Assembly (NCBI GenBank): GCA_023227985.1
Contig: JALOCB010000006.1
Location: 2,631-66,630, forward strand
Reading direction: 5' to 3'
Length of the DNA stretch: 64,000 bases
Source: Candidatus Omnitrophota bacterium
GTDB lineage: Bacteria > Omnitrophota > Gorgyraeia > Gygaellales > Profunditerraquicolaceae
Shown: positions 1 to 31,498 of the stretch, piece after piece
How positions within the stretch are numbered: the stretch's first letter is position 1
Layout: each line of letters starts with the position of its first letter
Made by a program: the position numbers and the translations under genes
Notes under the pieces: model-generated
Seen by the model: the letters and a program-made list of their open reading frames with translations, nothing else
Database searches by the model: none
What the model was told of the DNA's origin: nothing

Positions 1-144
1 CTTGTTCTTGCCGGTAAAAAACGGGTGGCACTTCGAACAGATCTCTACGCGGATGTTCGGTTTGGTCGAGCGGGTATGAATGGTCTCCCCGCAGGCGCAA
101 ACTATGGTACAGTCTTTATAACCAGGATGGATCTTGTCTTTCAT
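1..144 (-). CDS. rpmE: 50S ribosomal protein L31, N-terminal part; the gene runs off the left edge of the window
   Basis: Not in the ORF track because it is truncated. The reverse complement of 1..144 reads [48 protein letters not shown]. This matches the L31 signature (CxC...[10 protein letters not shown] zinc ribbon). The start ATG is complementary to 142..144, with an AAGGAG SD 8 nt upstream. Confidence 0.85.
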
Positions 145-240
145 TTCAGTTCTCCTTAATGAGCGGATTGCTTATGGAGCACTAGCCTATATTCTCTGCG
201 ACATAAGCAATAGGCCCTTGGCCGTCCGCGAATTAACCCC
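145..240 (-). promoter_or_regulatory. Conserved structured 5' leader, copy A, upstream of rpmE
   Basis: It shares sequence blocks with the glgA leader at 3525..3615: ctccttaatgagc, cttatggagc, gcgacataag and gcgaattaa(c/t)cccc. The spacing to the ATG is identical (motif begins 8 nt after the start codon on the plus strand). Stem arms ttgcttatg (168..176) and cataagcaa (202..210) enclose a 25-nt loop. Confidence 0.6.
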
Positions 241-293
241 GGAGCATTGATTTGCCCGCTGACTTTGCGGACAAGCCTGCCGGGGGCACAACT

Positions 294-1565
294 TTATTTC
301 TGGTTCATCGATCCCAAGAAATCCTCATTGGTTTTGGTTTTTACCAGTTTTTCGATCAGAAGCTCCATGGCTTCCACATTATTCAACTCGTTCAAGACCT
401 TGCGCAGTATCCATACCTTGGTCAACTCGTCGGGCTTCAAAAGCAGCTCTTCATGGCGGGTATTCGAGCGCTTGATGTCGATGGCCGGATATATCCTGCG
501 CTGAAAGAGGTTTCTATCCAGTTGCAGTTCCATATTTCCGGTGCCCTTGAACTCTTCGAAGATAACCTCGTCCATACGGCTGCCGGTATCAACCAGCGCC
601 GTGGCGATAATAGTCAGGCTTCCGCCCTCTTCTATGGCCCTGGCTGCCCCGAAGAAACGCTTGGGTTTTTGCAGCGCGTTGGAATCAATACCCCCGGAGA
701 GAACCTTGCCGCTGTGCGGGACTACCGAGTTGTACGCGCGGGCGAGCCTGGTGATACTGTCCAGGAGCACGACCACGTCCCTTTTATGCTCGACCAGCCT
801 TTTCGCCTTTTCCAGGACGATCTCAGCCACCTGGATATGTCTTTCCGGCGGCTCGTCGAAAGTTGAGGATATGACCTCGCCTTTTACGTGGCGCTGCATA
901 TCCGTGACTTCCTCAGGGCGCTCGTCGATCAACAGGACGATCAATATAATATCCGGATTATTCGCGGTTATGGCATTGGCGATCTTCTGCAAAAGCACTG
1001 TCTTTCCGCTGTACGGCTGGGCGACGATCAAGCCGCGCTGGCCCTTGCCCAACGGGGTAAGCAGCCCCATGATCCTGGTAGATACCTCGTTCGGGGTAGT
1101 CTCCATGTTAAAACGCTCCCTGGGATAAACCGGGGTAAGGTTATCAAAATTAACCTTTTCCTTGGCATCCTCGGGATTCTCGAAATTAACCGCCTCAACC
1201 TTCAAAAGCGCGAAATATTTCTCGCCTTCCTTGGGGGGGCGGATCTGTCCGGAAACCGTGTCGCCTGTCCTCAGATCGAATTTGCGGATCTGCGAAGGCG
1301 AGATATAAATATCGTCCGGACATGGAAGATAATTATAATTCGGCGACCTGAGGAACCCGAACCCTTCGGGAAGGATCTCAAGGACCCCCTCGCCGAACAT
1401 CAAGCCCTCTTTCTCGGCCTGCGCCTGTAAAACCTTGAAGATCAAATCCTGCTTTTTCAAACCGCTGAAGCCGCTGACGTTCAGTTCCTTAGCCAGTTTG
1501 TTCAGCTCGGTGATCTTCATTTCTTTTAGATTACTAATGTCTAACTTCTCCACAACAACCTCCAT
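294..1565 (-). CDS. rho: Transcription termination factor Rho
   Basis: The N-terminal domain ([13 protein letters not shown]...LIFKVLQAQ) is followed by an OB/RNA-binding domain. The ATPase core has a Walker A (AQPYSGKT) and the C-terminal motif [19 protein letters not shown]. The true start is probably the MKITEL methionine at about 1520, which would remove the overlap with coaE. Confidence 0.93.
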
Positions 1566-2155
1566 ATTAGCGCTACTTGTTTTCTGGTTTTCTCAATTGT
1601 GCCGCTGTTATCTATTACAAAATCCGCTAAACGGACCTTAGACTTTAAGGACAATTGCGCGCCTATCCTTTTTAAGATCTCTGGTCTAGACAGGGATGTT
1701 TTTTGGGCAAGCCTTTTCAATTGCCTGCCGCGGGAAAGAGCTACCACGATGATCTTATCAACAAGCTTATCCAGTCCTGCTTCGATAAGCAAAGGTGCGT
1801 CCACCACAACAACGTCGTTCTTGGCTGACTTGACCCTCCTTTTAACTTCGCGGATGACCGCAGGATGGGTTATCCCGCACAACCGCTTCAGCGCTTTCGG
1901 ATCGGAGAAAACGATACCGCCTAATTTTCCCCGGTCGATCGCGCCGTTGTTATTCTTCAAGATATCCCTGCCAAAGGCCTTCAAGATCTTTTTATATACC
2001 AACGTGCCTGGCGCGATAAGGCTATGGTTTATCTTATCCGCGTCAATGACGCCGGCGCCGTAACCGGCAAGGATCCCGGCTACAGTGCTTTTACCCGTGC
2101 CGAAACCGCCGGTCAACCCCAGAACGATCTTCTTATTTTCCTTTGGCTCTCTCAT
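1541..2155 (-). CDS. coaE: Dephospho-CoA kinase
   Basis: 204 aa. P-loop [12 protein letters not shown] at the N-terminus. Typical CoaE length and fold motifs. Confidence 0.85.
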
Positions 2156-3548
2156 ACAACTGCACGTATTTCTTGGCAGACTCGTTCCAGGAAAAATTGC
2201 ATTTCATCCCGCTGGCTACCAGTTCCTGCCAGGACTTCTTTGCCTTAAAGGCCTTGACCGCTTTTTTAACGGTGCTGATCAGGTCATCCTTGCTGTACTT
2301 ATCAAAGACAAAACCGTTCTTCGGCGTCACCGTATCCGCCAATCCTCCGGTCTTGAAAACCAACGGTACTGTCCCGTATTTCAGGCTGATCATCTGTCCC
2401 AAGCCGCATGGCTCGTATTTCGAAGGCATCAGGAATATATCCGATCCGGCGTATATCCGGTGAGCGAGACAATCGTCGAATTTCAAAAACAGCGATATAA
2501 CCTTAGGGTATTTCTTAACCATCGCTTCCATAACCTGGTGGTATTTCAGGTCGCCGGTCCCCAGAATGGCCATCTGCAGGTCCATCTTGCAGATCGTGTC
2601 GATCCCTGCAGCAAGGATATCAAAGCCTTTCTGCTGGGCCAGCCGCGAGACAATCCCGAATAAAGGGACATTCTGTTTAACCGGCAGCTTGCACATCTTC
2701 TGCAGGGCCTCTTTATTCTCGGCCTTGCCTTCCATATCCTTGAGCGAAAACCCTTTTACCAGGTTCTTATCGGTTGCCGGGTCCCAGATGGAATAATCCA
2801 GGCCGTTGATTATCCCGAAAAGCGAATTCCTGCGCTGGTTAAGGATGCCCTCCATCCCGAAACCGAATTCTTTGGTCTGTATCTCCTTGCTGTAGGTGTC
2901 GCTTACGGTATTTACGATATCCGAGAATACGATCCCGCCTTTAAGGACATTGACCTTATCGTAGTACTCCAGCTTATTCATGGTAAAGACATCCCAATCA
3001 AGCCCGAGCTTGGGAAATTCTTCCTTGGCGAACAAGCCCTGGTATCCGATATTATGGATGGTAAATATTGTTCTGGTCTTTTTATAAAAGTCGTCTTCGG
3101 CGTAAAGTGTTCTTAAATACACCGGGATCAAGGCTGACTGCCAGTCATGGCAATGAATGATATCCGCATTGAATTTCAGCTCCTTCAATAACTCCAGGGT
3201 CCTGCGGCTGTAATAAGCGAACCTGTCCAGATTGTCCTTATAATCTCCCGACTTATCGCCGTAAAGCTCCTGCCTGTCGAAATACTTATCGCTATCTATG
3301 AAATATACCTTTATGCCTTTACCGATCCGGGAACAGGAGATCCCTTCTTTTAATGTTTTTATTGCCGGGGCTTTCAGATCATGCACTTTTTTATACCCGG
3401 GCATGACTATGATCACTTCCTGGCCAAGTTTTTCCAGGGCTAAAGGCAACGCGCCGCCGACATCGGCCAACCCTCCGGTCTTGGCGAACGGTACTACCTC
3501 ACTTGCGCATATCGCTATCTTCATCCTGACCCTCCTTAATGAGCACAT
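2133..3548 (-). CDS. glgA: Glycogen synthase (GT5, ADP-glucose type)
   Basis: MKIAICASEVVPFAKTGGLADVGGALP is the KTGGL motif. GT-B fold with C-terminal GLGQM/FKTGGLADTV motifs. The likely true start is the MKIAI methionine at 3524. Confidence 0.9.
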   Translation of the reverse strand: MCSLRRVRMKIAICASEVVPFAKTGGLADVGGALPLALEKLGQEVIIVMPGYKKVHDLKAPAIKTLKEGISCSRIGKGIKVYFIDSDKYFDRQELYGDKSGDYKDNLDRFAYYSRRTLELLKELKFNADIIHCHDWQSALIPVYLRTLYAEDDFYKKTRTIFTIHNIGYQGLFAKEEFPKLGLDWDVFTMNKLEYYDKVNVLKGGIVFSDIVNTVSDTYSKEIQTKEFGFGMEGILNQRRNSLFGIINGLDYSIWDPATDKNLVKGFSLKDMEGKAENKEALQKMCKLPVKQNVPLFGIVSRLAQQKGFDILAAGIDTICKMDLQMAILGTGDLKYHQVMEAMVKKYPKVISLFLKFDDCLAHRIYAGSDIFLMPSKYEPCGLGQMISLKYGTVPLVFKTGGLADTVTPKNGFVFDKYSKDDLISTVKKAVKAFKAKKSWQELVASGMKCNFSWNESAKKYVQLYERAKGK

Positions 3549-3615
3549 AACTTATGGAGCTATTAATCACTTGTTACAGCGACATAAGTTATAGGTGCGA
3601 ATTAATCCCCTACGC
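3525..3615 (-). promoter_or_regulatory. Conserved structured 5' leader, copy B, upstream of glgA
   Basis: Paralogous to 145..240. Stem arms taacttatg (3548..3556) and cataagtta (3583..3591) enclose a 26-nt loop. The two arm differences relative to copy A are compensatory (t:a->a:t and g:c->a:t). An AAGGAG SD lies 8 nt before the ATG, as in copy A. Confidence 0.6.
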
Positions 3616-3670
3616 CTTATTTTGCCGTCCAGACCCATGGATTATTCAGGCAAAACAGTACGGGATAAAT

Positions 3671-6220
3671 TCAATTGATCTCCTCCATCTCCAACCAGTT
3701 CTTCCCCTGTTTGATGCTGACCCTTACCGGAACATCCAGCTCAAGGACATGCTCCATCCTCTCCCTGACCAGCCTTACGAATTCATTTATCTCGGCCTTG
3801 CCGACGTCGAAGACCAGCTCGTCGTGGATCTGCAGGATCATCCGGCCTTCCAGCTTTCTATTTTTGATCTCATTATGAATATCCACCATCGCCAGCTTGA
3901 TCAAGTCGCTGGCAGAGCCCTGTATCGGGGTGTTCACCGCCTGGCGCTGGGCAAGCATGCGGATATTCTGGTTCTTATTATTTATCTCCGGCAGATAACG
4001 GCGCCTTCCCAGTATCGTAGTCACAAAACCGTCCTCTTCCGCCTGTTTTATCTCTTTGTCGATAAGATCCTTTACTTTAGGGTATCGGGCGAAATACGCG
4101 TCGATAAAACCCTGAGCCTGGTCAGGAGGTATATTCAGGTCGCGGCTTAACCCGTAAGCGCTAAGTCCGTAAATGATCCCGAAATTTACCCGTTTGGCCG
4201 TATCGCGCATTTCATCGCTGATCGAATCCTCGGGCATGTCATAGATCAAAGACGCTGTTTTCCTATGGATATCGTCGCCCTTCCTGAACGCCTCCAGCAA
4301 AACCTCATCCTTGGACATATGCGCCAGGATCCGTAATTCTATCTGGGAATAATCAAAGGCCAGCAAAACGCTGTCTTCTGAGAAAGCGATCACCGCGGCC
4401 CGGATCTTCCTGCCCAGGTCGGTCTTAACCGGTATGTTCTGAAGATTAGGATTGCTGGAACTCAACCTTCCGGTCTCGGTGCCGGTCTGATTAAATGTGG
4501 TGTGCACCCTGCCGGTCTTATCGTCGACCAATTCCGGCAGCGCGTCAATATAAGTATTTTTAAGCTTGGTCAACTGCCGGTATTCCAAAAGCGCGGCCGG
4601 GAGCTTATGCTTACCGGCAAGCCGGTTCAAAACCTCTTCATCTGTGGACGGCCCGGTCTTGGTTTTTTTCACCACCGGCAATTTGAGCTTCTCAAAAAGG
4701 ACCTCGCGCAGCTGCTTGGGGGAATTTATATTGAACTGGCATCCGCTTATCTCATAAATGTCCGCGATAAGCTCAGCCAGCCTCTTCTCTAACTCCGAGG
4801 AAAGGTCTTTTAAAAGCTTAAGATCGAGTTTTATCCCGGTAAGCTCCATCTGCGCCAAAACCTCGACCAGGGGCATTTCCGTGCCGGTAAAAAGCTTTTC
4901 CAGTGATTTTTCTTTCAGTTGGGACTCTAATTCCGGCTTTAGCTTCTTGATAAGCTCCAACCCCGCTGCCGGCGTTATTGATCCCGGTTTTATCGACCTT
5001 TCGAAATAATCCCAGGCCAGTTCATTCAGGCCGTAATCGGATTTGGACGGGTTGGCCAGATACGCGGCGATCATTGTGTCAAAGAACAAGCCTTCTAATT
5101 CTATACCATCCCGGGCTAAGGCCAGCTTTATCTTCTTAAGGTCATGCCCGGTCTTCTTGATCGAGCTATCGGCCAATGCCGCTTTAAGGTTCGGCCCGAT
5201 ATTCTCCACCTTGAAGAACAGGCTTTTGCAGCCAAAAGCCAGATCCGACTGATCGTTGCCATAGAGAAAAAGCTCGTCCCCGGGCTTTATCAATCCTTTT
5301 ACAACCTTGTCATCAATGACCTCTATTCCTGTACCATCACCAGGCGTTTCCTGGCTGTCGCTGACAGGAAGATTTTTCAGAAGACCTTTGAATTCCAGGC
5401 GTTTAAAAAGCTTGAACAATTCCTGATAATCAGGCTCCGCGGCCTTGACCATACCCAGGTTGAAATCAAGATGCATATTATTATCCAGGCACGCCAACTC
5501 TTTATTCAGCCTGATCTGGTCGATATTAGCCATTACCGCGTCCTTGAGCTTATCCGGCTTTATATCCTCTGCCCTGGCTATCAATTCTTCGACAGAGCCG
5601 AATTCAATCAATAATCCGACGGCCTTTTTCTCGCTGACCCCTGGGATCTTGGGGATATTATCTATAGCATCGCCGCTAAGGGCGATAAGGTCCGGTATCT
5701 GGCGCGGGGCAAGCCCGAATTTCTCTCGGACCTTTTCCGTGTCATAAGTGACGCTTTCTTCTTTCTGGGGATTAAAAACCTCGACCGTTTCTTCCACCAA
5801 TTGCAGAAGGTCCTTATCGGAGCTGACCACTGTGGAATACAAGCCTTCTTCCTTAGCCTTACGGGCTAAGGTCGCGATAATATCATCCGCCTCAAAACCT
5901 TCCTGCTCGAACACCGGGATACGGTAAGCCGCCATGATCTCTTTGATGATCGGGATCTGACTGCTCAGCCCGTCGGGCATGGCCTGGCGCTGCGCCTTAT
6001 ACTCCGCGAATTTTTCCGACCTGAAGGTCTTGCGGGAAACATCGAAACAAACTGCCAGATATTGCGGTTTTTTATCCTTGATGATCTTATTCAGTATGTT
6101 CAAAAATCCGTATATCGCGTTAGTCGGCTGGCCGTAAGAAGTGGAAAGCCCGCGCACGGCGTAAAATGCCCGGTAACAAAAAGCCGTGGCATCGATCAAA
6201 AACAATCTGGGTTTAAGCAT
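3671..6220 (-). CDS. polA: DNA polymerase I
   Basis: 849 aa. N-terminal 5'-3' exonuclease (LFLIDATAFCYRAFYA) and a C-terminal family A polymerase. Motif A is DYSQIELR, motif B is RRxxKxxNFGxxYG, motif C is HDE (QIHDELVF). Confidence 0.95.
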   Translation of the reverse strand: MLKPRLFLIDATAFCYRAFYAVRGLSTSYGQPTNAIYGFLNILNKIIKDKKPQYLAVCFDVSRKTFRSEKFAEYKAQRQAMPDGLSSQIPIIKEIMAAYRIPVFEQEGFEADDIIATLARKAKEEGLYSTVVSSDKDLLQLVEETVEVFNPQKEESVTYDTEKVREKFGLAPRQIPDLIALSGDAIDNIPKIPGVSEKKAVGLLIEFGSVEELIARAEDIKPDKLKDAVMANIDQIRLNKELACLDNNMHLDFNLGMVKAAEPDYQELFKLFKRLEFKGLLKNLPVSDSQETPGDGTGIEVIDDKVVKGLIKPGDELFLYGNDQSDLAFGCKSLFFKVENIGPNLKAALADSSIKKTGHDLKKIKLALARDGIELEGLFFDTMIAAYLANPSKSDYGLNELAWDYFERSIKPGSITPAAGLELIKKLKPELESQLKEKSLEKLFTGTEMPLVEVLAQMELTGIKLDLKLLKDLSSELEKRLAELIADIYEISGCQFNINSPKQLREVLFEKLKLPVVKKTKTGPSTDEEVLNRLAGKHKLPAALLEYRQLTKLKNTYIDALPELVDDKTGRVHTTFNQTGTETGRLSSSNPNLQNIPVKTDLGRKIRAAVIAFSEDSVLLAFDYSQIELRILAHMSKDEVLLEAFRKGDDIHRKTASLIYDMPEDSISDEMRDTAKRVNFGIIYGLSAYGLSRDLNIPPDQAQGFIDAYFARYPKVKDLIDKEIKQAEEDGFVTTILGRRRYLPEINNKNQNIRMLAQRQAVNTPIQGSASDLIKLAMVDIHNEIKNRKLEGRMILQIHDELVFDVGKAEINEFVRLVRERMEHVLELDVPVRVSIKQGKNWLEMEEIN

Positions 6221-6396
6221 TATTCAAGAGGCTTATCATGGGAATAAACAGGAAGCGACGAGGGAATAGAACCACTCACTTTTTAAATTATTTTAAGGTG
6301 TCATTTCAGGTGAATCTTGAAGTAATGGCAGGTTATATCCTATGTAGATAATACCTAATTAGCGCATAGCTGTCAAGCAAAATAATTTCTCCCAAT

Positions 6397-6576: not shown

Positions 6577-6591
6577 GAGGAACCGTCCCCT
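6577..6591. repeat. Right arm of the 15-bp inverted repeat (gaggaaccgtcccct); overlaps the stop codon of the giant gene
   Basis: Perfect reverse complement of 6397..6411. The TAG stop of the 6590..14779 ORF lies inside the arm. Confidence 0.7.
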
Positions 6592-9500
6592 AGCCGAGTT
6601 GAATAAGGATCTCTTTCAACTGGCCGCAGGTCGGCAAAGCGTCTTCTTCTTCCGCCTTAAGGATATCCGCCACGCAATTAGTAACCGCCTGGATCTGTTT
6701 AGAGCTATCCGGCCTGGCATTGCAGCAGGCGACATATTCCTGGATCTTTAAATACGGCATTGGCCCCTGAACCATTGATGCGCGGATCTCCATCCACTGT
6801 TTATCCAACTCTTCCAGCGCGACCGCTCCGGTAAGATTCGGCATGACCGGTATCCTCACCCCGCCTATTGCCGGCTGGCTAACTATCGGCATTCCGCGGA
6901 AATCAATACCGCCAAGTGGAGCCTGTGTTTTATCCCCACCGTCAAAAACATTATCGCCGTTATTTGTTTCTCCGCTGGGACTGCTTTTGTATTCCCGCAC
7001 ATCCCCGGTGTGTTTATCATTACTATCCCGCTTAACCTTACCCTCAGTATCCCACGCATTAAAACGTTCACCCGTAGGCATTTTGCTGCCGCCGTCCGTA
7101 TTGCTTACCGGTAACCCACTCGGCACAACCACTTGCTTATCAATTCCAACCACTACGATATCATTATTTAATTCATTTATCTTTATTTGTATCGGGAAAA
7201 CGTGATTAACCAGAACGCTTTTCTCACTTTGTTCGACCGAAGGGATAGATAATATTGTAATAGTATCAGAAGGCGTCTCTTTATACCCTATTGTTATCGG
7301 TCCATCAACGGATACATCCCCGATCACAGTCAACCTGCCGACGAAATACGCGGAGAGTTCGCCCCGGCCGATGCGTTTAGCCAGGATCATAGCCAGATCC
7401 CGGGCTTTCTTGTAATCATAAGAACCGATATTTTTGAGATTGTTTTTCAGGCCTTGAGTCGAATATATACCCGTCCCGCCGTCAGAGAGCGGGCCATTCA
7501 ACAAAACCATCATTACGCCGCTTTCGCGATACAGGACTTCTTTATTCTTCAAAATAAAATCCTTACCCGCAGGCAGGGCTATAAGCAGCCGCGCCGCTTT
7601 CAATTGCGCCTCAAAAGAAACTGTATCGTCGGTTAAAATGTCCAGCAAAGGCTTAATCTCCGGAGAATACAACGCCGCCTTCGCGTACAATTCTTGAAGT
7701 TCCGCCGATCCCCCGTCTTTTTTCTGTTTCGCAATATCCATAAGAGCAGTCAGCGCTTCTTCACGGATCGCCGCTTTTATAGTCTGATCTGTGGTAACAA
7801 ACATCAACGGGGTAAACGCAGCCGTACCTATTGCTACCAATGCCCGGCATATCGCGTAACGGTTATTAGGCATAGTTTCCGTTTTTAACGCCGCGATCAA
7901 CGGAGCAACCGACCTTTTATCTTTCCTTTGGGCCAAATCCCTGGCCGCGCTGCCGCGATTCGCTGAATTAGTATCCTTTAATTGATTATGTAAATACGCT
8001 ATGTCTGTTATACTCCCGCCGTCACGAATGTTCTTTTCCGCGAAACTCGCGTCGGTTTTAGCCAGATATCCAACCACAGCGGTAAAAAATCCGGCCATCT
8101 CAGTTTCCGATGCCTGCGCTGTAAGATCAGAAGTGAGCAACACGACCTTACGTTTGTTCTTAATCATTGATTGGACCGTCCCCAGGGTCTGAGCCTTGAT
8201 CATACTATCGGAAAAACCCCGAATATCTTTCAATAGACCGAACTCTGTGGGCTGGATCGCCTGCAAAGGAAGGAAATATGTGGAAAAGAACATATTCTTT
8301 CCATCTTCGATGTTCTGCTGATACGCGTGGTTCTTATCCGGGCCTACCCCCAATTTAGCGGGCATTTTTAGACCGCGGGTGAACACCTCGGCACGGACTT
8401 TTTCAAATATCTCTTTGAGATTATCAGTCATGTTGCCATATGAGGTGAATTCCCCAGCCTCGATCTTATGCTTAAGCAAAAGGATAATTGCCGCATAAAC
8501 AGCAGCAGGATCTTCCATTGTAGAACCGAATGCGCGCACTTGATCATTAATATCATTGATATTTACGGCCCCCATCTGGATCAACGGATCATAATAAAGA
8601 GTTAAAACACCTTTCTTGCTTGACGCCTGGTAGATATTATTAAGAACTTTTTTAACATTCCCTCCGGCGCTTATAATCTCCTTATCCATCAGCTTTGAAG
8701 CGATCTTGTATCCCTCTACCGCCGGCTGATTAACGAAACAGATATCCCACAGATACCCGAATGCTGCTACCGCTCTTTGCATACCGAGCATCAAACCGCC
8801 GATATCTTCAAGATCATTCAATGAGATTTCATACGTTGGGTATCCGTTATCCTCAAGATACTTCCAGAGATTTGCCTGAGGCTTTCTTATGCCCAGATTG
8901 ATACGCAGGAACACACGGTCATTCGAATCAACGGGGTTAAGGACAGAAACATCCAAGTTTTCTTCATCGTAGAACAACGTGATGCCTTTCCCGAACTTTC
9001 CCAAGGATTCCTCGATCAACTGTTCAGCCCACATCGGATATGATTTCAACGCCGCTGGGACAATGATCGTCAGCTTATCTTTATTAAGATCCTTAGCCAT
9101 ATGCAGCATGAAAGCGCCGAGACGGAGAAATGGATCATCTTTGATACTGTTCATCTCGATAGCGTTATCAATAATAGGGACGATCAACTCCGGAGCGACA
9201 ACAGCCATGGGAAGAAGGAACACATTGGTGCCCGGAGCGGTGAATCTTCCGCCGACATCTCCGCGGCCATTAAGCTGGATCTCCCTCTGGCGCATTGCCG
9301 GATTTTCCTGTGCTTCAACTCCCCATGGGGAAATAGTATCGGTAATGAACCAAAGATTCTTCTGCGTATCCAAACCCAAGGTATTATACACATCCTCGAA
9401 ATATTTACGGTGCGCGACAGTTTCGGGAGTTGTAGCCGATTTCGAGATCAGGACTATCGCTGTCTTATCCAAAGCCGCCTTTAAACTGCCTTCCTTTTCC

Positions 9501-12500
9501 GCTATTTCCTTCAACATGAGTGTTATGACCGTAGGGTCGGTAGTCCTCAAACTGTATATATTTTCAGCCGCTTCATTCTTGAACGTATCTTTGACGAACT
9601 GGACGCTCAAGCCCGACCCGCCCATGCCGCAGAAAATAACGTATTTATATTTTTCCTTGAGTTCTTTCCCGTCATTGATCACATCTTCAAGCGTCCTGCC
9701 GGCTGAACCGTCGCGGATCGCTTTAAGATTCGTTATGGTCCAACCCAGCCTGTTCACCCATTCGCCTTTAAGCAGCTCAAAACCAAGTTCGGATAATTTA
9801 CCATTACCGATCTTCTTTACGGCTTCATACGAAGCGCCGTTAGCCGCCCCTTCCAGCTGGCTGGTAAAATCATTAGCTTTAAGTTGATCAAGCAATTTAT
9901 TGACCTCAAAACCATATGCCTCCCCGCCGTCGCGAATGACCGGAGCGTTACGCCTGATATAAGCCAGATCTTCCTTTAACTGCGGCTCGACCCTGGCAAA
10001 GAACCGGTCATTTGTATCTTTGGTGAACGGCCTGTCGCCTATCCGCGCTAACAGCGCTTTTACAGCCGGATCCTTGCTCTTAAACCCGGCAAGAACAGCA
10101 TTGATCTCCGCGTCAGTAAGGAACATCTCGATCTCCGGCGGAAGCCCCTTGTACCTGTCGACAATAACCCTGAGCGCGGCTCTCGTACTGCCGCCATCAC
10201 GAGTTTCAGGAACAGCGGTTTTCAGATATTTTACCGCGTCTTCTGTAGCAGCGAATTTTTCGGCAGCGTTCTTTTCAATATCCTCTATGCCGGCTCCGCT
10301 GAAAAGATCGGATAACGCCTTGGTCTCCTGGGCTTCTATGCGGATGGATTTCGGGTTCAATCCGGGTTTTTCATTCCTTAATTTCAAGAACATCGATAAC
10401 ATCACCTCGGTCAATACCCGCAGGTCTTCGCGGCTGCGCGAATGAGCGCCAAAAGCGATCTTTTCCGAGGTATTCGACCAGCCCCAGTAAAATATCCCTA
10501 GCGGCGTCATAAAATAATAAACGCCCTCGATATCAACCAAAGTGAATGTTTCTTTCTGGCCTTCAAACTTTTCCCAATTTACGTATTCAAAATCTTTATC
10601 ACCGGAAAACGCCTTAGTCACAACATCCCGCCACTCGTTCATCAGGTGTTTCTTGTATTGTTCCTGCATTGAGGTTCTTTGTTCGCTGAGTGAATACCAC
10701 TGGCTGAACGCGCCTTTCTGCCGCAGGTCCTTCAAATAATCATCCAAAAGCCATTTAGGCTGCTGATGTTTTTCCCTGATGGCGGTAAAAGCCTCCAGCC
10801 AGCTGTACATAAAACGCATAGCGTCGTCGATACAAGCCCCGGTATCTATGGTAATGAACGGGTGCAAAGAATATTCCATCTGGTAGTTCTTATATCCTGT
10901 GGCCTTCACAAAATCCTCAACGGAAGCGAACCCTTTTTCTTTGGCGAGTTTCGTCATCAATATTTCTACGGTTTTCTTTTCCTTGGAATGCCCTTTGGTA
11001 TGGATTATCGCAGTACCCCCTAAATAATCCACCAATTCGGCTATAGAAGGTATCATCCGCGAATCATAATAGATTTTTTTATGGTCCTGTCCGTATTTAC
11101 CCAGGGCATACTCGATCACCGGATAAAACAGGATATCGCCTTTATAAAGCTTTCCGGCTATAACAATACCGCAGCGGTCAGTATCAAGGTCGAATGAAAA
11201 GACAACCACATCCGGATTCCTGGCAGACCAGGATAGGATACTCTCATCACCGGCGGATTTAGGATGACCCAGGCATTTGTCATCGTCCCGGGAAGGATCT
11301 GGCAGGCCTTTTGTGCAAGTTGGGTCGGACTGAGCCCTGAAAACATTCACCAGCTTGGAACCCAGGGTACCTTTAACATAATCCACATAGCTGGTCGCTG
11401 AGCCTCCGCCGAAATCCACGGCGATCTTGATATCCATATCCTTGAGTTTGTTAATAAGAGCTGTAAATTCAACGTTCAGCTTTTCCTTATATATATCGGT
11501 GATCTTGCCCTGCAACTCCTGGGTATTGATAAACGCGCCCATATCCTTAGCGTCCATGACCCTCAAACCGCTATCCGCGCTGTCCCCGGCGATCTGCTTG
11601 CCCAGGACCTGGATCATATCCCCGAAAAGCGTGGTCTTGCCGATGATCGGTTTAAACCCGTTTATACCGACCTCTACATGCGAACGAGTAACATAGAACC
11701 CGCCCTGTACACCCAAGCGGGAAACCGTGGTATACAATTGGCCGCTTATACAAGTATCCAGATCTATTACGTTGATCCCGGCAGCACGCAAACCCAAAGC
11801 CAGGTATTTGCGCATTTTCGGGGTTGTCGGTCCATTATCACCGGCTATTATAAAGGTATCGCCTGGTTTTAATCCTTCAGTGCCATGGTGCGAATCAAAC
11901 TTTGATGTTCCCAGGGCAATACCCAGTAAAACCAGCATTTCCGGGGTAAAATATTCGTCGTTGCCGCGGACATCATATTCTTTAAGGACTGAAGACAGTT
12001 TCTTCTTTATCTCCTGCAATCCCTCATAGGTCACGGTTATTGTTTCATCAGGGGTTGTGATAACCAAAGGTTTCTCCGGAGTAATCCTAAATAAACCCGG
12101 GGCCTGTCCGGGGTTTTTTATCTGCCCGTTGATGATCGATTTAGCCTGGCTGATCAATTCGTCGGCCTTTCCGCCGTCGAAATTGGCAGAGACTCCGCCT
12201 TTATCCAGCCTCTGATTGATCTTTGCGGACGCTTCTTCTATCGCTCTTTTCATGAGGATATCGTTGCCTTCCGGCTGGCTGGCGAATGCTTCCAATGTCC
12301 TGCGCTCGCCGGTTCTCTCTCCTAAGACCTTAACCGCATTAAGCCTGATCAACCTGTTATTACCGGTATCTTTAAAAGCTGCGATATATATCCGCTCTAT
12401 ATCCCGATTATTAAGCCCCAATTGTTTTAAAGACATCTCAGCCGCGGGATAAATGTCGTAATTATCACCCAGCACAGTCCAGACCAAATATTCTCTTAAA

Positions 12501-14779
12501 TACGGTATCGCTTTAGCATCTCCAAGCTTGCCCAGGATACGCGCAGCATCCTCTTTATTTCTACGCATAGTCCGCGGATCGCTAATTTCTTTAATATATT
12601 TATTCGCCTGCCACGGGATAACCGTACTTTTCCACAACGAAACGAACGTCCGGATGAAGATATTGGCCGGATCATACTTATTCTCGCGCAGCAATCCGTT
12701 GTCCGCAGCGCCGCCGTCAGGCGTTCCAGGCTCAACAGGTACGCCGAATTTCAGATCGCGCAGGGAAAAATCTCCCATAACGCGGTCAAGCCAAGGCAGA
12801 GCTCCCTTATGCAGAAAGTAACCGATTGCGCCCAAAGACAACCCCACAGATACGCATATCACCAATATTTTTACCGGTAACGGCATGAACATTGAAACAG
12901 CAATACCTATCAAGCCCGAACCCAAACCTGCCCCCATAAGCTTTCTGGTAGGATATTCCTTGCTGGACTGCTCTTTTACAAATGCCTTGAATTCATCGAA
13001 CTCCGCCCGGTTGTTAAAACTGCTCTCAAACTCAGCCTGTATGGAATCCAGATGATTTTCCCAGGTATAACCGGAAATAGCCGCATCAAAATCATCAATT
13101 CTTTCCAGCAGAGCTAAACCACCAAGTTTACGAAGCAATTTTCCCTTTCGTTCAAGAGAAAGAATCCCTGCCCCTTGTGCGCTTCCTCCATCACGATGGG
13201 AATTACCCAGTATTTTCCCGACTTCACTGTAATATTCGCTTGTAAGATCGCGCACAGGGATATCCCTGGCGATCAATTTATAGAAACTATACCCGCCGGC
13301 TATCCCTAACAATGCTGTCACCGCCGACCCCATGATCATCGGCAAAAACACTGGCCCGGTTATCAGTAACGCCCCAAGAGTTAATCCCCCGACAATCGCA
13401 AATGCACCAAGCATAAGCGCGGTGTTGGCTTTCCTGGCAAAAAACCAATCATCCAGGTCTTTTGTATTGATCGCCGCCAGCGCCGTATTAATCTCATTCT
13501 GCGTGTATTTATTATCCTGAATAAGGGTTTTAATCCGCGCCAGACGCCGGTCCACAAAGTCCCGGTCAGCCGAGCGCATCCAATTGATCTCTTGGATGGC
13601 GGAACTGAGTTCATCGGTCCTGGAACGCTTTGGGGCAAAAACGCCGCCGTCACGGGTTTGTTGATCCTTATGTACCGGTTGGTAATTCTTACCCTCAACC
13701 GCCAGAACATCAGCGGGCACGATCGAAGTTTTCTGAGGGATTACCGCGATTTCAGTGACAGTATCAGGTATAAGCATAATACCGCCGCTAAAATATCTGC
13801 GCACGGTTATCCCGTTCAGGCTGTTCACGGTTTCCCGGGTATTATATTCACCGTCAACAAAAGATTTCCGATAGGCATTAAAATAATTATCTTTAGACCA
13901 GGCGCTGCGCGAGGAAAGTCCGGCAAGGTCCTCCTTGTTTATCCGGCGGCTGTATTCCGCAGGCATATTTATGGCATTCTTCTTGAACCATTGGGCCAGG
14001 ACTATGGAATAATATACCTGCCTCAAGGGCGCGTACTCCTTGGCGCTGTTAATTTTTTTGGTTAATTTAGGGAGGATTGCCTCGCGGATCAAACCGGAAG
14101 AATATTCATTCAACTCCTTAAGGCGCGGATCGTCAAATCCATAAGTAGCGGAATTCTTCAGGTGATCCTGCTCCAGCATAACCTTTAAGGTCGCTTTATA
14201 CACATACGCGCTGTCAGCCGACTGCTTGACGATTATCTCGCCCGGAACTATCCAGGGGCGGGTCAAGGTGGGGATATTGATCTTTTGGTTTCCTAAAAGG
14301 CTTTCAGCCTTTTCGTACAGCCTCTTCCAATAGATCTTTCCTTCCCTGGTCTTGGGAGAAGTGGCCATAGCCATATCTTTTTTCAACTGAAGGTCTGCTT
14401 CCAGGAGTATCTTCCCGATATCAGTATTCTCCAATGCCGGGTCAATGATATCACTCTTGCCGTCCGGACGCAGATTAACCCAGAAAGTATTATTAGGCAA
14501 AGTCACGCCGATCTGAAAATATTCCATCAGTTTGGCTATAGACCCCTTAAGCTGCGCCGGCTTAACATTCTTATTGTCGCCTTTATCAAGCAAAAGGGTG
14601 AAATCATCCTTGATCCGGTCATAAACCAGGGACCTCAAATGCAAGGGGCGGAATTTATTGATCGAAGACACGCTGGAGAATGATCCGGAAAGATCAATTA
14701 CGTTCGCAACCTGGGCAAACCCAATTTGCTCGAATAAGAAAACAAAACTTATCAAAAACGCGATTATCTTTTTAAACAT
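6590..14779 (-). CDS. Giant (2,729 aa) secreted/membrane multidomain protein with PGM-like and PGI-like domains, HEAT-type repeats and four predicted TM helices
   Basis: Single uninterrupted ORF. N-terminal signal peptide (MFKKIIAFLISFVFLFEQIGFAQ). Hydrophobic helix pairs at aa ~452-500 and ~614-658. The alpha-D-phosphohexomutase-like region (aa ~935-1320) has DVRG, a TASHNP-like FYVTRSHVEVGINGFK and an FDGDxDR-like FSFDLDTDRCGIV. The PGI/SIS-like region (aa ~1700-2030) has GMGGSG, ISKSATTPET, GGRFT and VNQPAVEGYK, which resembles PGI signature 2. HEAT/PBS-lyase-like repeats lie at aa ~735-850 and ~2260-2410. DGG occurs 11 times. Confidence 0.8.
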   Translation of the reverse strand: MFKKIIAFLISFVFLFEQIGFAQVANVIDLSGSFSSVSSINKFRPLHLRSLVYDRIKDDFTLLLDKGDNKNVKPAQLKGSIAKLMEYFQIGVTLPNNTFWVNLRPDGKSDIIDPALENTDIGKILLEADLQLKKDMAMATSPKTREGKIYWKRLYEKAESLLGNQKINIPTLTRPWIVPGEIIVKQSADSAYVYKATLKVMLEQDHLKNSATYGFDDPRLKELNEYSSGLIREAILPKLTKKINSAKEYAPLRQVYYSIVLAQWFKKNAINMPAEYSRRINKEDLAGLSSRSAWSKDNYFNAYRKSFVDGEYNTRETVNSLNGITVRRYFSGGIMLIPDTVTEIAVIPQKTSIVPADVLAVEGKNYQPVHKDQQTRDGGVFAPKRSRTDELSSAIQEINWMRSADRDFVDRRLARIKTLIQDNKYTQNEINTALAAINTKDLDDWFFARKANTALMLGAFAIVGGLTLGALLITGPVFLPMIMGSAVTALLGIAGGYSFYKLIARDIPVRDLTSEYYSEVGKILGNSHRDGGSAQGAGILSLERKGKLLRKLGGLALLERIDDFDAAISGYTWENHLDSIQAEFESSFNNRAEFDEFKAFVKEQSSKEYPTRKLMGAGLGSGLIGIAVSMFMPLPVKILVICVSVGLSLGAIGYFLHKGALPWLDRVMGDFSLRDLKFGVPVEPGTPDGGAADNGLLRENKYDPANIFIRTFVSLWKSTVIPWQANKYIKEISDPRTMRRNKEDAARILGKLGDAKAIPYLREYLVWTVLGDNYDIYPAAEMSLKQLGLNNRDIERIYIAAFKDTGNNRLIRLNAVKVLGERTGERRTLEAFASQPEGNDILMKRAIEEASAKINQRLDKGGVSANFDGGKADELISQAKSIINGQIKNPGQAPGLFRITPEKPLVITTPDETITVTYEGLQEIKKKLSSVLKEYDVRGNDEYFTPEMLVLLGIALGTSKFDSHHGTEGLKPGDTFIIAGDNGPTTPKMRKYLALGLRAAGINVIDLDTCISGQLYTTVSRLGVQGGFYVTRSHVEVGINGFKPIIGKTTLFGDMIQVLGKQIAGDSADSGLRVMDAKDMGAFINTQELQGKITDIYKEKLNVEFTALINKLKDMDIKIAVDFGGGSATSYVDYVKGTLGSKLVNVFRAQSDPTCTKGLPDPSRDDDKCLGHPKSAGDESILSWSARNPDVVVFSFDLDTDRCGIVIAGKLYKGDILFYPVIEYALGKYGQDHKKIYYDSRMIPSIAELVDYLGGTAIIHTKGHSKEKKTVEILMTKLAKEKGFASVEDFVKATGYKNYQMEYSLHPFITIDTGACIDDAMRFMYSWLEAFTAIREKHQQPKWLLDDYLKDLRQKGAFSQWYSLSEQRTSMQEQYKKHLMNEWRDVVTKAFSGDKDFEYVNWEKFEGQKETFTLVDIEGVYYFMTPLGIFYWGWSNTSEKIAFGAHSRSREDLRVLTEVMLSMFLKLRNEKPGLNPKSIRIEAQETKALSDLFSGAGIEDIEKNAAEKFAATEDAVKYLKTAVPETRDGGSTRAALRVIVDRYKGLPPEIEMFLTDAEINAVLAGFKSKDPAVKALLARIGDRPFTKDTNDRFFARVEPQLKEDLAYIRRNAPVIRDGGEAYGFEVNKLLDQLKANDFTSQLEGAANGASYEAVKKIGNGKLSELGFELLKGEWVNRLGWTITNLKAIRDGSAGRTLEDVINDGKELKEKYKYVIFCGMGGSGLSVQFVKDTFKNEAAENIYSLRTTDPTVITLMLKEIAEKEGSLKAALDKTAIVLISKSATTPETVAHRKYFEDVYNTLGLDTQKNLWFITDTISPWGVEAQENPAMRQREIQLNGRGDVGGRFTAPGTNVFLLPMAVVAPELIVPIIDNAIEMNSIKDDPFLRLGAFMLHMAKDLNKDKLTIIVPAALKSYPMWAEQLIEESLGKFGKGITLFYDEENLDVSVLNPVDSNDRVFLRINLGIRKPQANLWKYLEDNGYPTYEISLNDLEDIGGLMLGMQRAVAAFGYLWDICFVNQPAVEGYKIASKLMDKEIISAGGNVKKVLNNIYQASSKKGVLTLYYDPLIQMGAVNINDINDQVRAFGSTMEDPAAVYAAIILLLKHKIEAGEFTSYGNMTDNLKEIFEKVRAEVFTRGLKMPAKLGVGPDKNHAYQQNIEDGKNMFFSTYFLPLQAIQPTEFGLLKDIRGFSDSMIKAQTLGTVQSMIKNKRKVVLLTSDLTAQASETEMAGFFTAVVGYLAKTDASFAEKNIRDGGSITDIAYLHNQLKDTNSANRGSAARDLAQRKDKRSVAPLIAALKTETMPNNRYAICRALVAIGTAAFTPLMFVTTDQTIKAAIREEALTALMDIAKQKKDGGSAELQELYAKAALYSPEIKPLLDILTDDTVSFEAQLKAARLLIALPAGKDFILKNKEVLYRESGVMMVLLNGPLSDGGTGIYSTQGLKNNLKNIGSYDYKKARDLAMILAKRIGRGELSAYFVGRLTVIGDVSVDGPITIGYKETPSDTITILSIPSVEQSEKSVLVNHVFPIQIKINELNNDIVVVGIDKQVVVPSGLPVSNTDGGSKMPTGERFNAWDTEGKVKRDSNDKHTGDVREYKSSPSGETNNGDNVFDGGDKTQAPLGGIDFRGMPIVSQPAIGGVRIPVMPNLTGAVALEELDKQWMEIRASMVQGPMPYLKIQEYVACCNARPDSSKQIQAVTNCVADILKAEEEDALPTCGQLKEILIQLG

Positions 14780-28435: not shown

Positions 28436-29188
28436 TCATTCCAGAAGCGCGGAAACCAGGCATATCCTGACCAGCGCGCAGGTCTCAAGATAATCCAGGT
28501 CAAAAGGCTTAACGATATACTCGCATACCCCGAATTTTTTTGCCTCTTCGAACACGGACTCATCCATTATGCCGGTGATCATGATAACGCCCACTTTGTC
28601 ATCCATCTCCCGGATCCGTTTAAGGGTAAGGAGTCCGTCTATCCCGGGCAATTTCACGTCCAGCAATACCAGGATCGGCTTTTCCGCCTTGAATTTCTCC
28701 AGGCCTTCCTCCCCGCTGGCGGCGGTCACCACGCTAAACCCTTTTTTAGACAAAAAATCGCGGATCAACGAAGATATATTCGGGTCATCATCCACAACCA
28801 GTATCTTTTCCTGGCCGTAGCGTTTATTAGGCTGCAATATCTCGTTAATGGCCTTTACAATGACATCTATGCCCAATGCCTTGCGCAGAAAACCGCTCGC
28901 CCCGGCCAGGCGGGCCCGGCGCTCCAACTCGTCGTCGGCAAAACCGGTCACCATCAACACCTTGGTCTTATGGTCGAAATAACGCAGTTTCTCCAGCAGC
29001 TCGACACCGTCCATATCCGGCATCTTGAAATCCAAAAGCATCAATTCGGGGTTGTGCGTCCGCGCCAATTCCAGGGCCTCTTTGCCGCTATGGGTTGTTA
29101 TCACCTTATAGCCGACTTTGGTCAACGCGTCATAAAGAAGTTCGCGGATCTGAGAATCGTTATCCACCACCAGGATTTTGGATTCCAT
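28436..29188 (-). CDS. Tandem-receiver response regulator (REC-REC)
   Basis: Two complete CheY-like domains: ILVVDND...MLLDFKMPD and ILVVDDD...VLLDVKLPG. Confidence 0.85.
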   Translation of the reverse strand: MESKILVVDNDSQIRELLYDALTKVGYKVITTHSGKEALELARTHNPELMLLDFKMPDMDGVELLEKLRYFDHKTKVLMVTGFADDELERRARLAGASGFLRKALGIDVIVKAINEILQPNKRYGQEKILVVDDDPNISSLIRDFLSKKGFSVVTAASGEEGLEKFKAEKPILVLLDVKLPGIDGLLTLKRIREMDDKVGVIMITGIMDESVFEEAKKFGVCEYIVKPFDLDYLETCALVRICLVSALLE

Positions 29189-29203
29189 ATGCCTTTACGC
29201 TCC

Positions 29204-30040: not shown

Positions 30041-30371
30041 AGAGGTCTATGGGTTTATACATTACGTCTTTTTCATTATAACCCAATCCCAACAACTCAT
30101 CAATATCTTTCTGGAGACCTATTGACCCGCTTAAGATTATGACCGGCAGCTTTATCCCCGCGTCATTCAATCCCCTCAAAACATCCATGCCGGTCATTTT
30201 AGGCATGCGCATATCTATGATCAACAGGTCCATCTTGTCGCCGGACTTTAATATATTCAGCGCCTTGTCGCCTTCCAGGTTTTTAAAAACTTCAAACCCT
30301 TTCTTGCGCAAAAAGACGTCGATTATATTCACTATCTCCTGCTCGTCATCTACTACCATTATTTTAGGCAT
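29988..30371 (-). CDS. Single-domain response regulator
   Basis: 127 aa. IMVVDDEQE...LLIIDMRMPKMTG. Confidence 0.85.
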   Translation of the reverse strand: MPKIMVVDDEQEIVNIIDVFLRKKGFEVFKNLEGDKALNILKSGDKMDLLIIDMRMPKMTGMDVLRGLNDAGIKLPVIILSGSIGLQKDIDELLGLGYNEKDVMYKPIDLFEILAKVKEKLGENEDK

Positions 30372-31107: not shown

Positions 31108-31108
31108 A

Positions 31109-31471: not shown

Positions 31472-31482
31472 TGTTCCCTTCT

Positions 31483-31497
31483 CAAGACCCGGTCTTG
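31483..31497. repeat. 15-bp palindrome CAAGACCCGGTCTTG, copy 1
   Basis: Perfect palindrome around a central C. Lies in the 27-bp gap between the hybrid HK stop and the REC start. Confidence 0.7.
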
Positions 31498-31498
31498 A

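Follow-up and report, generated by a model that had tools for sequence, protein, structure and literature searches.

The structured element that precedes glgA belongs to a highly abundant and previously undescribed repeat family of the Omnitrophota, and its presence before both glgA (copy B) and rpmE (copy A) is best explained by the spread of a generic element, not by a shared sensor. Copy B, which is non-coding, probably belongs to an Omnitrophota-specific family of mosaic hairpins and is an intercistronic repeat, REP/BIME- or MITE-like, that supplies a ribosome-binding site and exposes it. A search of the literature on Omnitrophota/Omnitrophica repeats or RNA motifs, and on GIY-YIG proteins with MITEs or REPs, which covered few subscription journals, found no description of such a family.

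Both copies lie on the minus strand of the window (the whole 64-kb stretch of DNA analyzed), in the polA-glgA and rho-rpmE spacers, with the following features:

6348..6376, minus strand: promoter-like TTGACA-17-TATTAT 5' of polA (scan, 11/12 matches)
3671-6220, minus strand: polA (Pfam DNA_pol_A)
3671..3673, minus strand: polA stop codon UGA, inside the 5' strand of the copy B P0 extension (ORF list and sequence)
3525-3670, minus strand: spacer B, polA-glgA, 146 nt
3599..3672, minus strand: P0 hairpin of copy B, stem CCC(G)...(G)GGG 3664-3607 (minimum-free-energy folds)
3531..3609, minus strand: core hairpin and Shine-Dalgarno of copy B (match to covariance model R1, 67.9 bits, E = 3.7e-13)
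5' strand of this core: GGG-A, UUAAU (3605-3601), UC, GCAC (3598-3595), CU bulge, AUAACUUAUG (3592-3583), UC-GC
Apex of this core: 18 nt, between UC-GC and GC-UC
3' strand of this core: GC-UC, CAUAAGUUAU (3556-3547), GUGC (3546-3543), UC, AUUAA (3540-3536), GGAGG (3535-3531)
3522..3535, minus strand: Shine-Dalgarno GGAGG (3535-3531), 6-nt gap, glgA AUG (3524-3522) (sequence)
2133-3524, minus strand: glgA (Pfam Glyco_transf_5, E = 4e-84)
1541-2155, minus strand: coaE (Pfam), its start overlapped by the end of glgA and itself overlapping rho
294-1565, minus strand: rho (Pfam), stop codon 296-294
145-293, minus strand: spacer A, rho-rpmE, 149 nt
237..286, minus strand: P0 hairpin of copy A, CCCCCGG...CCGGGG, between the rho stop and the core (fold and sequence)
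152..236, minus strand: core hairpin and Shine-Dalgarno of copy A, 5' of rpmE (R1 match 155-236, 19.7 bits; alignment)
144-142, minus strand: start codon ATG of rpmE (Pfam-identified gene)

The cistrons 3' of copy B run from glgA to coaE to rho with successive genes overlapping, and the site at 6348..6376 is, as judged from the sequence scan, the sole strong candidate promoter for a polA-glgA-coaE-rho-rpmE transcript. Copy B is not an assembly artefact, since the locus is present in two independent NCBI MAGs and its sister-species version in three assemblies; the identical GlgA protein (463 aa) is called in two public MAGs.

The original prediction of a structured leader before glgA was borne out, the predicted range 3525-3615 corresponding to the core hairpin plus the Shine-Dalgarno of a unit that reaches 3672 via P0. 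Both spacers fold better than their shuffled versions (z = -3.3 for spacer B, -2.2 for spacer A), and R1, whose seed came from other family members with copy B excluded, gave exactly two matches on the window with filters off, namely copies A and B. With only two copies in 64 kb, translation starts in this genome do not generally carry the element. The claim that glgA and rpmE have a leader in common, of nearly equal length (about 148 nt), agrees with the two spacers, which have in common the blocks GGGG(A)TTAATTCGC, CTTATGTCGC-N17/18-GCTCCATAAG (2 matches vs 0.00 expected in shuffles), and GCTCATTAAGGAG (2 exact matches). Their fold is the same and the stem differences are compensatory: copy A has ATTGCTTATG/CATAAGCAAT with GCGGA/TCCGC, and copy B has ATAACTTATG/CATAAGTTAT with GCAC/GTGC. 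The core of copy A has the architecture of copy B plus an additional small hairpin, GGCC-AAG-GGCC (223-213), after GCGGAC. Copy B consists of P0 and core, with the third module of the family, X, reduced to its 3' flank; a predicted outer extension of its P0 pairs GAAUU-U-AU (3672-3665) with A-U-UAAUUC (3606-3599), and in the predicted fold this pairing and the UUAAU/AUUAA closure of the core compete with each other.

The exact pattern TTAATTCGC-N36-81-GCTCATTAARGRRR was found in at least 120 stretches of JGI metagenomes, about seven off-family matches being left out of the family set, and the members listed have further conserved positions that it did not specify, namely GGG upstream plus ...CCRTAAGTYATGT ahead of GCTC. 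When 50 minimal members were aligned with MAFFT, 96% of the cells paired and 10 of the 19 pairs varied at both bases (90 cells), a result equalled by 0 of 500 shuffles, while slid controls on the same alignment were only 27 to 45% paired. R1 gave 161 matches in 100 loci (600 kb) and 30 in 26 further loci, with up to six copies per locus, as many as five or six within loci of 13 to 14 kb, and five in one contig of 2.5 kb (six with the original pattern match included). It gave none in about 70 non-Omnitrophota GlgA loci, and the named proteins adjoining the element all belong to Candidatus Omnitrophota. The family had no match to Rfam 15 (cmscan, at gathering score over the window and at E <= 10 over positions 1-4000), and at E <= 1 five element-rich loci had nothing at the elements; what these searches did return lay elsewhere, namely a tRNA, an FMN riboswitch, and some miRNA-like hairpins matched by chance.

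The full unit reads upstream stop codon, X, P0, core, (A)GGAG(G), and a start codon 5 to 10 nt on. The core consensus is GGG-N-UUAAU-UC-GCNC...GNGC-UC-AUUAA, its 3' strand running into the Shine-Dalgarno, and P0 is a CCC...GGG hairpin. X is an inverted twin hairpin, often ahead of P0, that the same covariance model detects on the opposite strand 60 to 300 nt upstream, and its loops are GA/GA, as simple inversion predicts; at locus L150 the modules form a tandem mosaic array. In P0, the two bases that immediately precede CCC and TTAATTCGC covary with each other (paired in 75 of 80 units, 70 of them Watson-Crick, of three types), arm sequences recur across loci, loop lengths span about 20 to 300 nt, and many units have a GAAUUU-type flank. 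The apex and an optional P2 insert vary freely among members. Stems are nearly all Watson-Crick (13 G.U vs 7 A.C in 950 cells), which a DNA-level palindrome fits equally well as an RNA structure.

The genes behind the element are diverse. Among the matches listed, the 77 distinct downstream proteins fell against 405 NCBIfam families with none having more than two members; this summary showed diversity only, and the names come from Pfam. They include translation and chaperone genes (EF-Tu, GroEL, GroES, L20, S20, S13, S15, L19, S6), others such as MetK, GH57, PurH, PFK, GAPDH, ACP, IlvC, AroC, RNase Y, and a T2SS pseudopilin; pseudopilins, response regulators, and small hypothetical proteins are also among the downstream products. 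Among the same matches, only about 6 of some 115 copies precede rpmE (four or five copies) or glgA. The downstream ORF starts about 0 to 16 nt from the module, mostly 5 to 10, a link to the start codon that is partly built in because the search pattern demanded a purine-rich 3' end, although it did not demand an ORF start within that distance. A co-directional upstream ORF was found in 79 of 94 assessable copies (84%, only modestly above what is usual for bacterial gene pairs), its end a median 126 nt away. Since the 3' strand ends in the Shine-Dalgarno, the element is placed so that it could act post-transcriptionally, and to this extent the proposal is supported. A regulator dedicated to coupling glgA to rpmE is not supported, because the module precedes dozens of unrelated genes, and hence the element is no signal linking glycogen synthesis to L31.

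In the predicted fold, the Shine-Dalgarno is left open and is not sequestered. Over 97 members its mean predicted unpaired probability was 0.58, against 0.41 with the upstream part shuffled (Wilcoxon p = 1e-10), and the predicted values were 0.72 vs 0.53 for copy B and 0.60 vs 0.49 for copy A; only the AUUAA 5' of GGAG is able to pair, weakly. AUUAAAGGAGG was considered for extended complementarity to the 16S 3' tail, in loci that carried no 16S sequence. Under our preferred reading, the element would be transcribed within the polA-glgA-coaE-rho-rpmE operon, and its stable, self-contained hairpins would, going by the predicted folds, lock up the sequence 5' of the ribosome-binding site, so that the Shine-Dalgarno stays accessible regardless of the upstream context. 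Position and folds together suggest an insulating, site-presenting module whose hairpins are probably also a processing or stability boundary, with the downstream cistrons expressed independently of polA.

Orthologous spacers are occupied in a patchy way. In the window and in L083, glgA and rpmE are both preceded by the element; L201 has it at rho, L006 and L128 have it at rpmE only, L096 has it in the rho-rpmE spacer, and L086 and L088 have it at none of glgA, rho, or rpmE; many Omnitrophota rpmE genes are also without it. The possibility that the element had been recently transposed fits the glgA copy: copy B is limited to the window species and its 92%-identical sister, and relatives with 62 to 80% GlgA identity have no copy there, their polA abutting or overlapping glgA. 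Copy A is 87% identical to its L083 counterpart, similar to the flanking coding DNA (82 to 89%), while copy B is only 71% identical to that of L083, with P0 hairpins that cannot be aligned. Copy B would appear to have entered the polA-glgA spacer in a recent ancestor shared by the window species and its sister, where it probably took the place of a tight or overlapping junction. A separate observation concerns L096, in which the core is followed by a direct repeat of 16 nt, AGGAGGTAAGAAAATG; the junctions of the orthologous spacers are too diverged to read.

At six loci the P0 arms lie about 265 to 305 nt apart and enclose an ORF of 76 to 96 aa for a GIY-YIG protein (Pfam PF01541, E = 4e-17 to 1.5e-9), and five of these six are flanked by X and core in inverted orientation. 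Homologous genes elsewhere are tightly bracketed by CCC.../...GGG inverted repeats of 17 to 20 nt, and the P0 arms are of the same type. To our knowledge, GIY-YIG is not an established transposase. An alternative is that the family is a purely selfish mobile repeat (REPIN- or MITE-like) moved in trans by the nested nucleases and without host function, its copies persisting because they are tolerated, thanks to a good Shine-Dalgarno on one side and a stop codon on the other. The nested and bracketed nuclease genes, the patchy occupation just described, the replacement of P0 between sister species, the density of copies with their mosaic and tandem arrays and recurrent P0 arms, and the nearly pure Watson-Crick stems are all consistent with it. 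However, every exact GIY-YIG protein looked up had a single genomic context, and the nuclease genes of L211, L214, and L219 have the inverted repeats without a core or X nearby; the nuclease may therefore be tied to P0 alone (in L219 the ORF sits between co-directional housekeeping genes with almost no spacer). The strict orientation and start-codon spacing, together with the conservation of copy A at the level of coding DNA, suggest host constraint, and such bulk in small Omnitrophota genomes would argue for some benefit. On balance we regard a wholly selfish repeat as possible but rather unlikely.

Slightly more plausible, although still tentative, is a joint reading in which the Omnitrophota have an undescribed REP-like system. 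A minimal, stand-alone GIY-YIG nuclease with CCC/GGG inverted repeats, often nested between inverted hairpin modules, would take the role of RAYT, and gene-less derivatives would have colonized the spacers of housekeeping operons. The right module would be the downstream ribosome-binding site and the left one would supply or overlap the upstream stop, so that upstream translation could remodel the GAAUUU-UUAAUUC pairing vs the UUAAU-AUUAA pairing, a relay for translational coupling over about 150 to 250 nt.

That the element is instead an operator for a global trans-acting factor, an RNA-binding protein or small RNA conveying one growth-state signal to housekeeping genes, seems to us unlikely. 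The factor would recognize UUAAUUCGC / GCUCAUUAA, which do not vary, together with the pair of UC/UC internal loops; neither the outer helix nor the tandem loops show any variation, although paired positions could covary, but the invariance of UUAAUUCGC/GCUCAUUAA is not independent evidence because the search pattern imposed both. The module adjoins the Shine-Dalgarno, many targets are translation, chaperone, and central-metabolism genes, and the alternative pairing of UUAAUUC with the upstream GAAUUU could form a switch. Against this, the targets also include the pseudopilins, response regulators, and small hypotheticals, the same genes are without the element in close relatives, and the X twin carries its GA/GA loops instead.

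Less credible still is that P0 is an intrinsic terminator of polA and rho, with the core beginning a new transcript. UUAAUU does follow P0, a hairpin closed by G+C pairs, but the scan that detected the site upstream of polA found no terminator-like or promoter-like (sigma-70-like) site in 145-293 or 3525-3670, P0 loops are often long or contain genes, and GGG-N-UUAAUUCGC runs on without a break, which leaves no space for a promoter between P0 and core. A promoter within P0, some arms having TTGACA 17 nt before TTAATT, was rejected as a general feature, since most P0 families are without TTGACA and their loops vary from about 20 to 300 nt. That a leader specific to L31 autoregulation, or a riboswitch for a metabolite or a metal, was duplicated before glgA to co-regulate ribosome and glycogen synthesis is hardly tenable: the element is structured, adjoins the Shine-Dalgarno, and precedes rpmE in at least four lineages (window, L083, L006, and L128, with L096 as a fifth), but rpmE and glgA are a small minority of the matches listed, no Rfam L31 leader or riboswitch matches at E <= 10, no conserved junction resembles a ligand pocket while apex and P2 insert vary freely, the Shine-Dalgarno is predicted to be exposed, and many rpmE genes do without the element. 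Nothing points to the metal, nutrient, or growth-rate sensing that had been suggested. A gene-specific riboswitch or cis-leader of any other kind was discarded for the unrelated downstream genes, the variable apex and P2 hairpin, the predicted exposure of the Shine-Dalgarno, and the lack of a terminator-like site in the scan. Integron attC sites (RYYYAAC ... GTTRRRY boxes) were also discarded, the ends here being TTAATTCGC and GCTCATTAA and the neighbors core housekeeping genes.

For annotation, such spacers should be read neither as gene-specific riboswitches nor as ribosomal-protein leaders, and mining for structured RNAs in Omnitrophota genomes will meet the family repeatedly. The spread of the element rewires operon junctions: where the overlapping polA/glgA junction was replaced, translational coupling presumably gave way to an independent ribosome-binding site. 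Because it equips unrelated genes with a stable hairpin and a perfect Shine-Dalgarno, a dispersed repeat of this type would amount to a portable cassette for translation initiation that arose in nature. The nested GIY-YIG genes are a testable candidate for the mobilizer of palindromic repeats in a never-cultured phylum, and this route may be a second enzymatic solution beside REP/RAYT.

Among known systems, REPs of Enterobacteria and Pseudomonas are strictly intergenic and co-transcribed with their operons, and RAYT genes lie between REPs in inverted orientation. The family resembles REP/BIME/REPIN elements in being short imperfect palindromes with conserved stem mismatches, present in many intergenic copies, which occur singly, as inverted doublets (X/core), and as mosaics that include linker motifs; its nuclease gene lies between two inverted copies, just as RAYT does. 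However, REPs lie after stop codons and supply no ribosome-binding sites, whereas in the family the core's 3' strand continues directly into a Shine-Dalgarno whose spacing from the start codon is fixed. No RAYT (HUH Y1 transposase) gene was seen in the loci inspected, where the nested gene is a GIY-YIG nuclease, and the 5' GTAG tetranucleotide of REPs is absent, the conserved flank being GGG-N.

RNase III acts on the hairpins of the Correia elements of Neisseria, and these can also carry parts of promoters. Along with ERIC/IRU, RUP, and BOX elements they share with the family a length of 100 to 200 nt, inverted ends, a gene-adjacent and, in the family, probably co-transcribed position, and long hairpins; those elements can alter the expression of neighbors, as the family may. 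The family differs from Correia elements and MITEs in its regular orientation and start-codon spacing and in its nesting, with P0 inside an X/core palindrome and a nested GIY-YIG gene rather than a DDE transposase parent. The seg genes of phage T4, which code for free-standing GIY-YIG homing endonucleases, are comparable as very small ORFs between co-directional housekeeping genes, but the proteins of the family (76 to 106 aa) consist of the catalytic domain with no obvious DNA-binding domain, and their genes are bracketed by inverted repeats and accompanied by many gene-less hairpins. The Rfam L31 leaders (L31-Firmicutes, L31-Actinobacteria, and L31-Gammaproteobacteria, among others) are likewise structured 5' regions adjoining rpmE, although the family matches none of their covariance models and is not limited to rpmE. 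Finally, the ompA 5' hairpin, the cryIIIA STAB-SD, RiboJ, and bicistronic designs also place a stable hairpin 5' of an accessible perfect Shine-Dalgarno (AAAGGAGG), and by this analogy we infer that copy B may act in the manner of stabilizer or insulator hairpins; those are single-gene or engineered devices, whereas the family is natural, dispersed, and conserved in sequence.

The spacers in front of rpmE (copy A) and glgA (copy B) hold a common structured element. They share the blocks GGGG(A)UUAAUUCGC, CUUAUGUCGC-N-GCUCCAUAAG (two matches versus 0.00 expected) and GCUCAUUAAGGAG, the differences between their stems are compensatory changes, and both spacers fold better than shuffles, which together confirm the structured element proposed in the original prediction. 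The range assigned to copy B, 3525-3615, does cover a real structured unit, but this unit extends farther 5', to 3672. It comprises a CCC...GGG hairpin (P0) and a core hairpin whose 3' strand runs into the Shine-Dalgarno:

3673-3671, minus strand: UGA stop codon of polA
3664-3607, minus strand: P0, CCCG...GGGG
3605-3601, minus strand: UUAAU, in the 5' strand of the core, then UC, GCAC and a CU bulge
3592-3583, minus strand: AUAACUUAUG of the core, then UC-GC, an 18-nt apex and GC-UC
3556-3547, minus strand: CAUAAGUUAU, 3' strand of the core, then GUGC, UC and AUUAA (3540-3536)
3535-3531, minus strand: Shine-Dalgarno GGAGG, then six nt and the glgA AUG (3524-3522)

The long helix of the core is broken by two tandem UC/UC internal loops, and GAAUUUAU, an outer extension of P0, is predicted to pair with A-UUAAUUC. 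Copy A has the same build, with a different P0 and an extra small hairpin, GGCC-AAG-GGCC. Both copies also allow pairing between (G/A)AUGA at the start codon and a UCAUU shortly 5' of the Shine-Dalgarno (3522-3542 and 141-162, minus strand); in minimum-free-energy folds this forms a weak hairpin with the Shine-Dalgarno in its loop.

The element belongs to a dispersed family. A pattern combining both outer blocks with a purine-rich tail matched at least 120 stretches in more than 50 assemblies of the JGI metagenomes. With about seven obvious chance matches removed, the matches listed are conserved beyond the pattern's demands at an upstream GGG, on the 5' side at ACA..AACUUAYG and on the 3' side at CCRUAAGUYAUGU, ahead of GCUC. 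When 50 minimal members (59-64 nt) were aligned with MAFFT, the proposed helices were 96% paired, versus 27-45% for slid controls, and 10 of the 19 pairs had two-sided changes, a count reached by no shuffle. A covariance model (R1) trained on other members, copy B not among them, gave copy B 67.9 bits and found only A and B in the window; it had no match in GlgA loci from outside Omnitrophota (about 70 loci, about 650 kb) and gave 191 matches across 126 loci from metagenomes, a single locus holding as many as six. All named proteins beside the element are from Omnitrophota. Rfam 15 had no match at either copy, nor to the elements at element-rich relatives.

The conserved GGG is paired into P0 in 74% of units, and the bases that precede CCC and UUAAUUCGC covary, forming a pair with each other in 75 of 80 cases; 70 of these pairs are Watson-Crick, of three types. 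Many units also carry, farther upstream, an inverted twin of the core (X; consensus AAAUGARGNC-hairpin-GNCYGAAUUUGA), detected on the opposite strand by R1, with GA/GA where the core has UC/UC and often with the stop codon of the upstream gene inside its 5' flank. Tandem or mosaic units exist; at L150 (480-900, minus strand) the order is stop, X, P0, core, mini-ORF AUGAUCUAG, second P0, second core and gene, and the hairpin of X is a P0-like palindrome.

Among the matches listed, almost every copy has a start codon downstream of its GGAG, at a distance of about 0-16 nt and mostly of 5-10 nt. The distribution of the element is generic: the 77 distinct downstream products among these matches gave 405 NCBIfam families with at most two members each. 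Genes confirmed by Pfam include those for translation and folding (EF-Tu, GroEL, GroES, L20, S20, S13, S15, L19, S6), metabolism (MetK, a GH57 enzyme, PurH, PFK, GAPDH, ACP, IlvC, AroC) and others (RNase Y, a T2SS pseudopilin). Since rpmE and glgA together account for only about six copies among the matches listed, the basis for a specific regulatory link between these two genes is gone. A co-directional ORF lies upstream of 79 of the 94 assessable copies, ending at a median distance of 126 nt. In L098 (2408-2530, minus strand, and downstream), several units lie within a riboflavin operon, after an FMN riboswitch scoring 95 bits and, as X and core, before and between the genes; riboswitch and repeat therefore coexist in one leader.

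The genes around the two copies are co-directional, with overlaps among glgA, coaE and rho:

6348-6376, minus strand: near-consensus sigma-70-like promoter TTGACA-17-TATTAT upstream of polA, found by scan
3671-6220, minus strand: polA
3525-3670, minus strand: copy B spacer, polA-glgA, 146 nt
2133-3524, minus strand: glgA
1541-2155, minus strand: coaE
294-1565, minus strand: rho
145-293, minus strand: copy A spacer, rho-rpmE, 149 nt
144-142, minus strand: ATG of rpmE, which continues past the window edge
next after rpmE in gene order, minus strand: prfA

The candidate promoter is likely the start of an operon containing both leaders, and a scan of both spacers found no promoter-like or terminator-like sites. 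Directly upstream of the promoter region lies a 2729-aa ORF (6590-14779, minus strand), and at the matching position the sister locus L083 has a product of 3453 aa that contains HEAT and PGM/PMM domains; Omnitrophota are known for giant genes. Elsewhere (28782-34652), a 28-nt direct repeat, GGGTCATCATCCACAACCAGTATCTTTT, occurs in five copies (71-100% identical, 0.4-2.8 kb apart) and probably represents a coding motif conserved among paralogs.

The element turns over among relatives. The sister species (L083-L085; GlgA 92% and Rho 98% identical) has both leaders. Copy A is 87% identical to its L083 counterpart, in line with the adjoining coding DNA (82-89%), versus only 71% for copy B, where the P0 hairpins are unalignable and the L083 counterpart has the extra small hairpin, which is missing from copy B of the window. 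Three stem positions of copy B differ on both strands, and both versions recur commonly among other family members; replacement or conversion and in-place compensatory evolution are therefore equally likely. In Omnitrophota with 62-80% GlgA identity (L003-L006, L050, L086, L088, L201), polA abuts or overlaps glgA or is separated from it by a short unrelated spacer, and in L201 the element is found at the coaE-rho junction instead. Units occupy the rho-rpmE spacer of the window and of L083, L006, L128 and L096; seven other lineages examined have none there. The rho-rpmE spacer of L086 (6152-6314; 79% GlgA identity) contains an AT-rich long palindrome of AAAAGT-like repeats, unrelated to the family. 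In L096 (590-750), the Shine-Dalgarno of the core serves a 25-codon ORF; rpmE follows about 125 nt later, preceded by a second copy of the 16 nt AGGAGGTAAGAAAATG, a direct repeat that might be a trace of how the element was installed.

We favor an intercistronic module that would insulate and present the ribosome-binding site, because the Shine-Dalgarno is predicted to be more open (0.58 in the ensemble versus 0.41 with the upstream part shuffled, p = 1e-10; 0.72 versus 0.53 for copy B), the leaders have no promoter- or terminator-like sites and a strong promoter-like site precedes polA. Such a module would probably also mark a processing or stability boundary, and at glgA it would have taken the place of a coupled polA/glgA junction. 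A selfish repeat, tolerated and with no host role, is the main rival; it is kept alive by stems that are nearly all Watson-Crick and by the replacement of P0 between copy B and L083. An operator for a global trans-factor is possible, and a specific sensor of L31 or of a metabolite is very unlikely.

Some copies contain a gene. At six loci, the arms of P0 form perfect inverted repeats of 13 nt, separated by about 265-305 nt, and enclose an ORF of 76-96 aa with a GIY-YIG catalytic domain, whose homologs are named Omnitrophica GIY-YIG nucleases; in five of the six, X and core lie in inverted orientation on either side. Homologous genes at three further loci, set between co-directional genes, lack core or X nearby; CCC.../...GGG inverted repeats of 17-20 nt closely enclose them as well:

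L094, 1636-1939: GIY-YIG ORF inside P0
L096, 244-533: GIY-YIG ORF inside P0
L101, 3563-3832: GIY-YIG ORF inside P0
L123, 698-950: GIY-YIG ORF inside P0, frameshifted
L177, 217-620: GIY-YIG ORF inside P0
L178, 2580-2900: GIY-YIG ORF inside P0
L211, 1248-1569: GIY-YIG gene without core or X
L214, 1474-1776: GIY-YIG gene without core or X
L219, 1499-1825: GIY-YIG gene without core or X

The inverted repeats of L211 are nested within a second palindrome, GGGACGTTGCCG...CGGCAACGTCCC, and the gene of L219 is wedged into an RND efflux operon.

The proposed regulatory link between glgA and rpmE is unsupported. Dispersed palindromic intergenic repeats are well known as a kind; this family is absent from Rfam, with no description found in the searchable literature, and it is unusual in that the repeat itself includes a ribosome-binding site and that some copies have a GIY-YIG nuclease nested in them. 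The layout of the nested ORF is like that of RAYT genes flanked by inverted REPs, although the enzyme differs here, and by this analogy a mobile origin is plausible.
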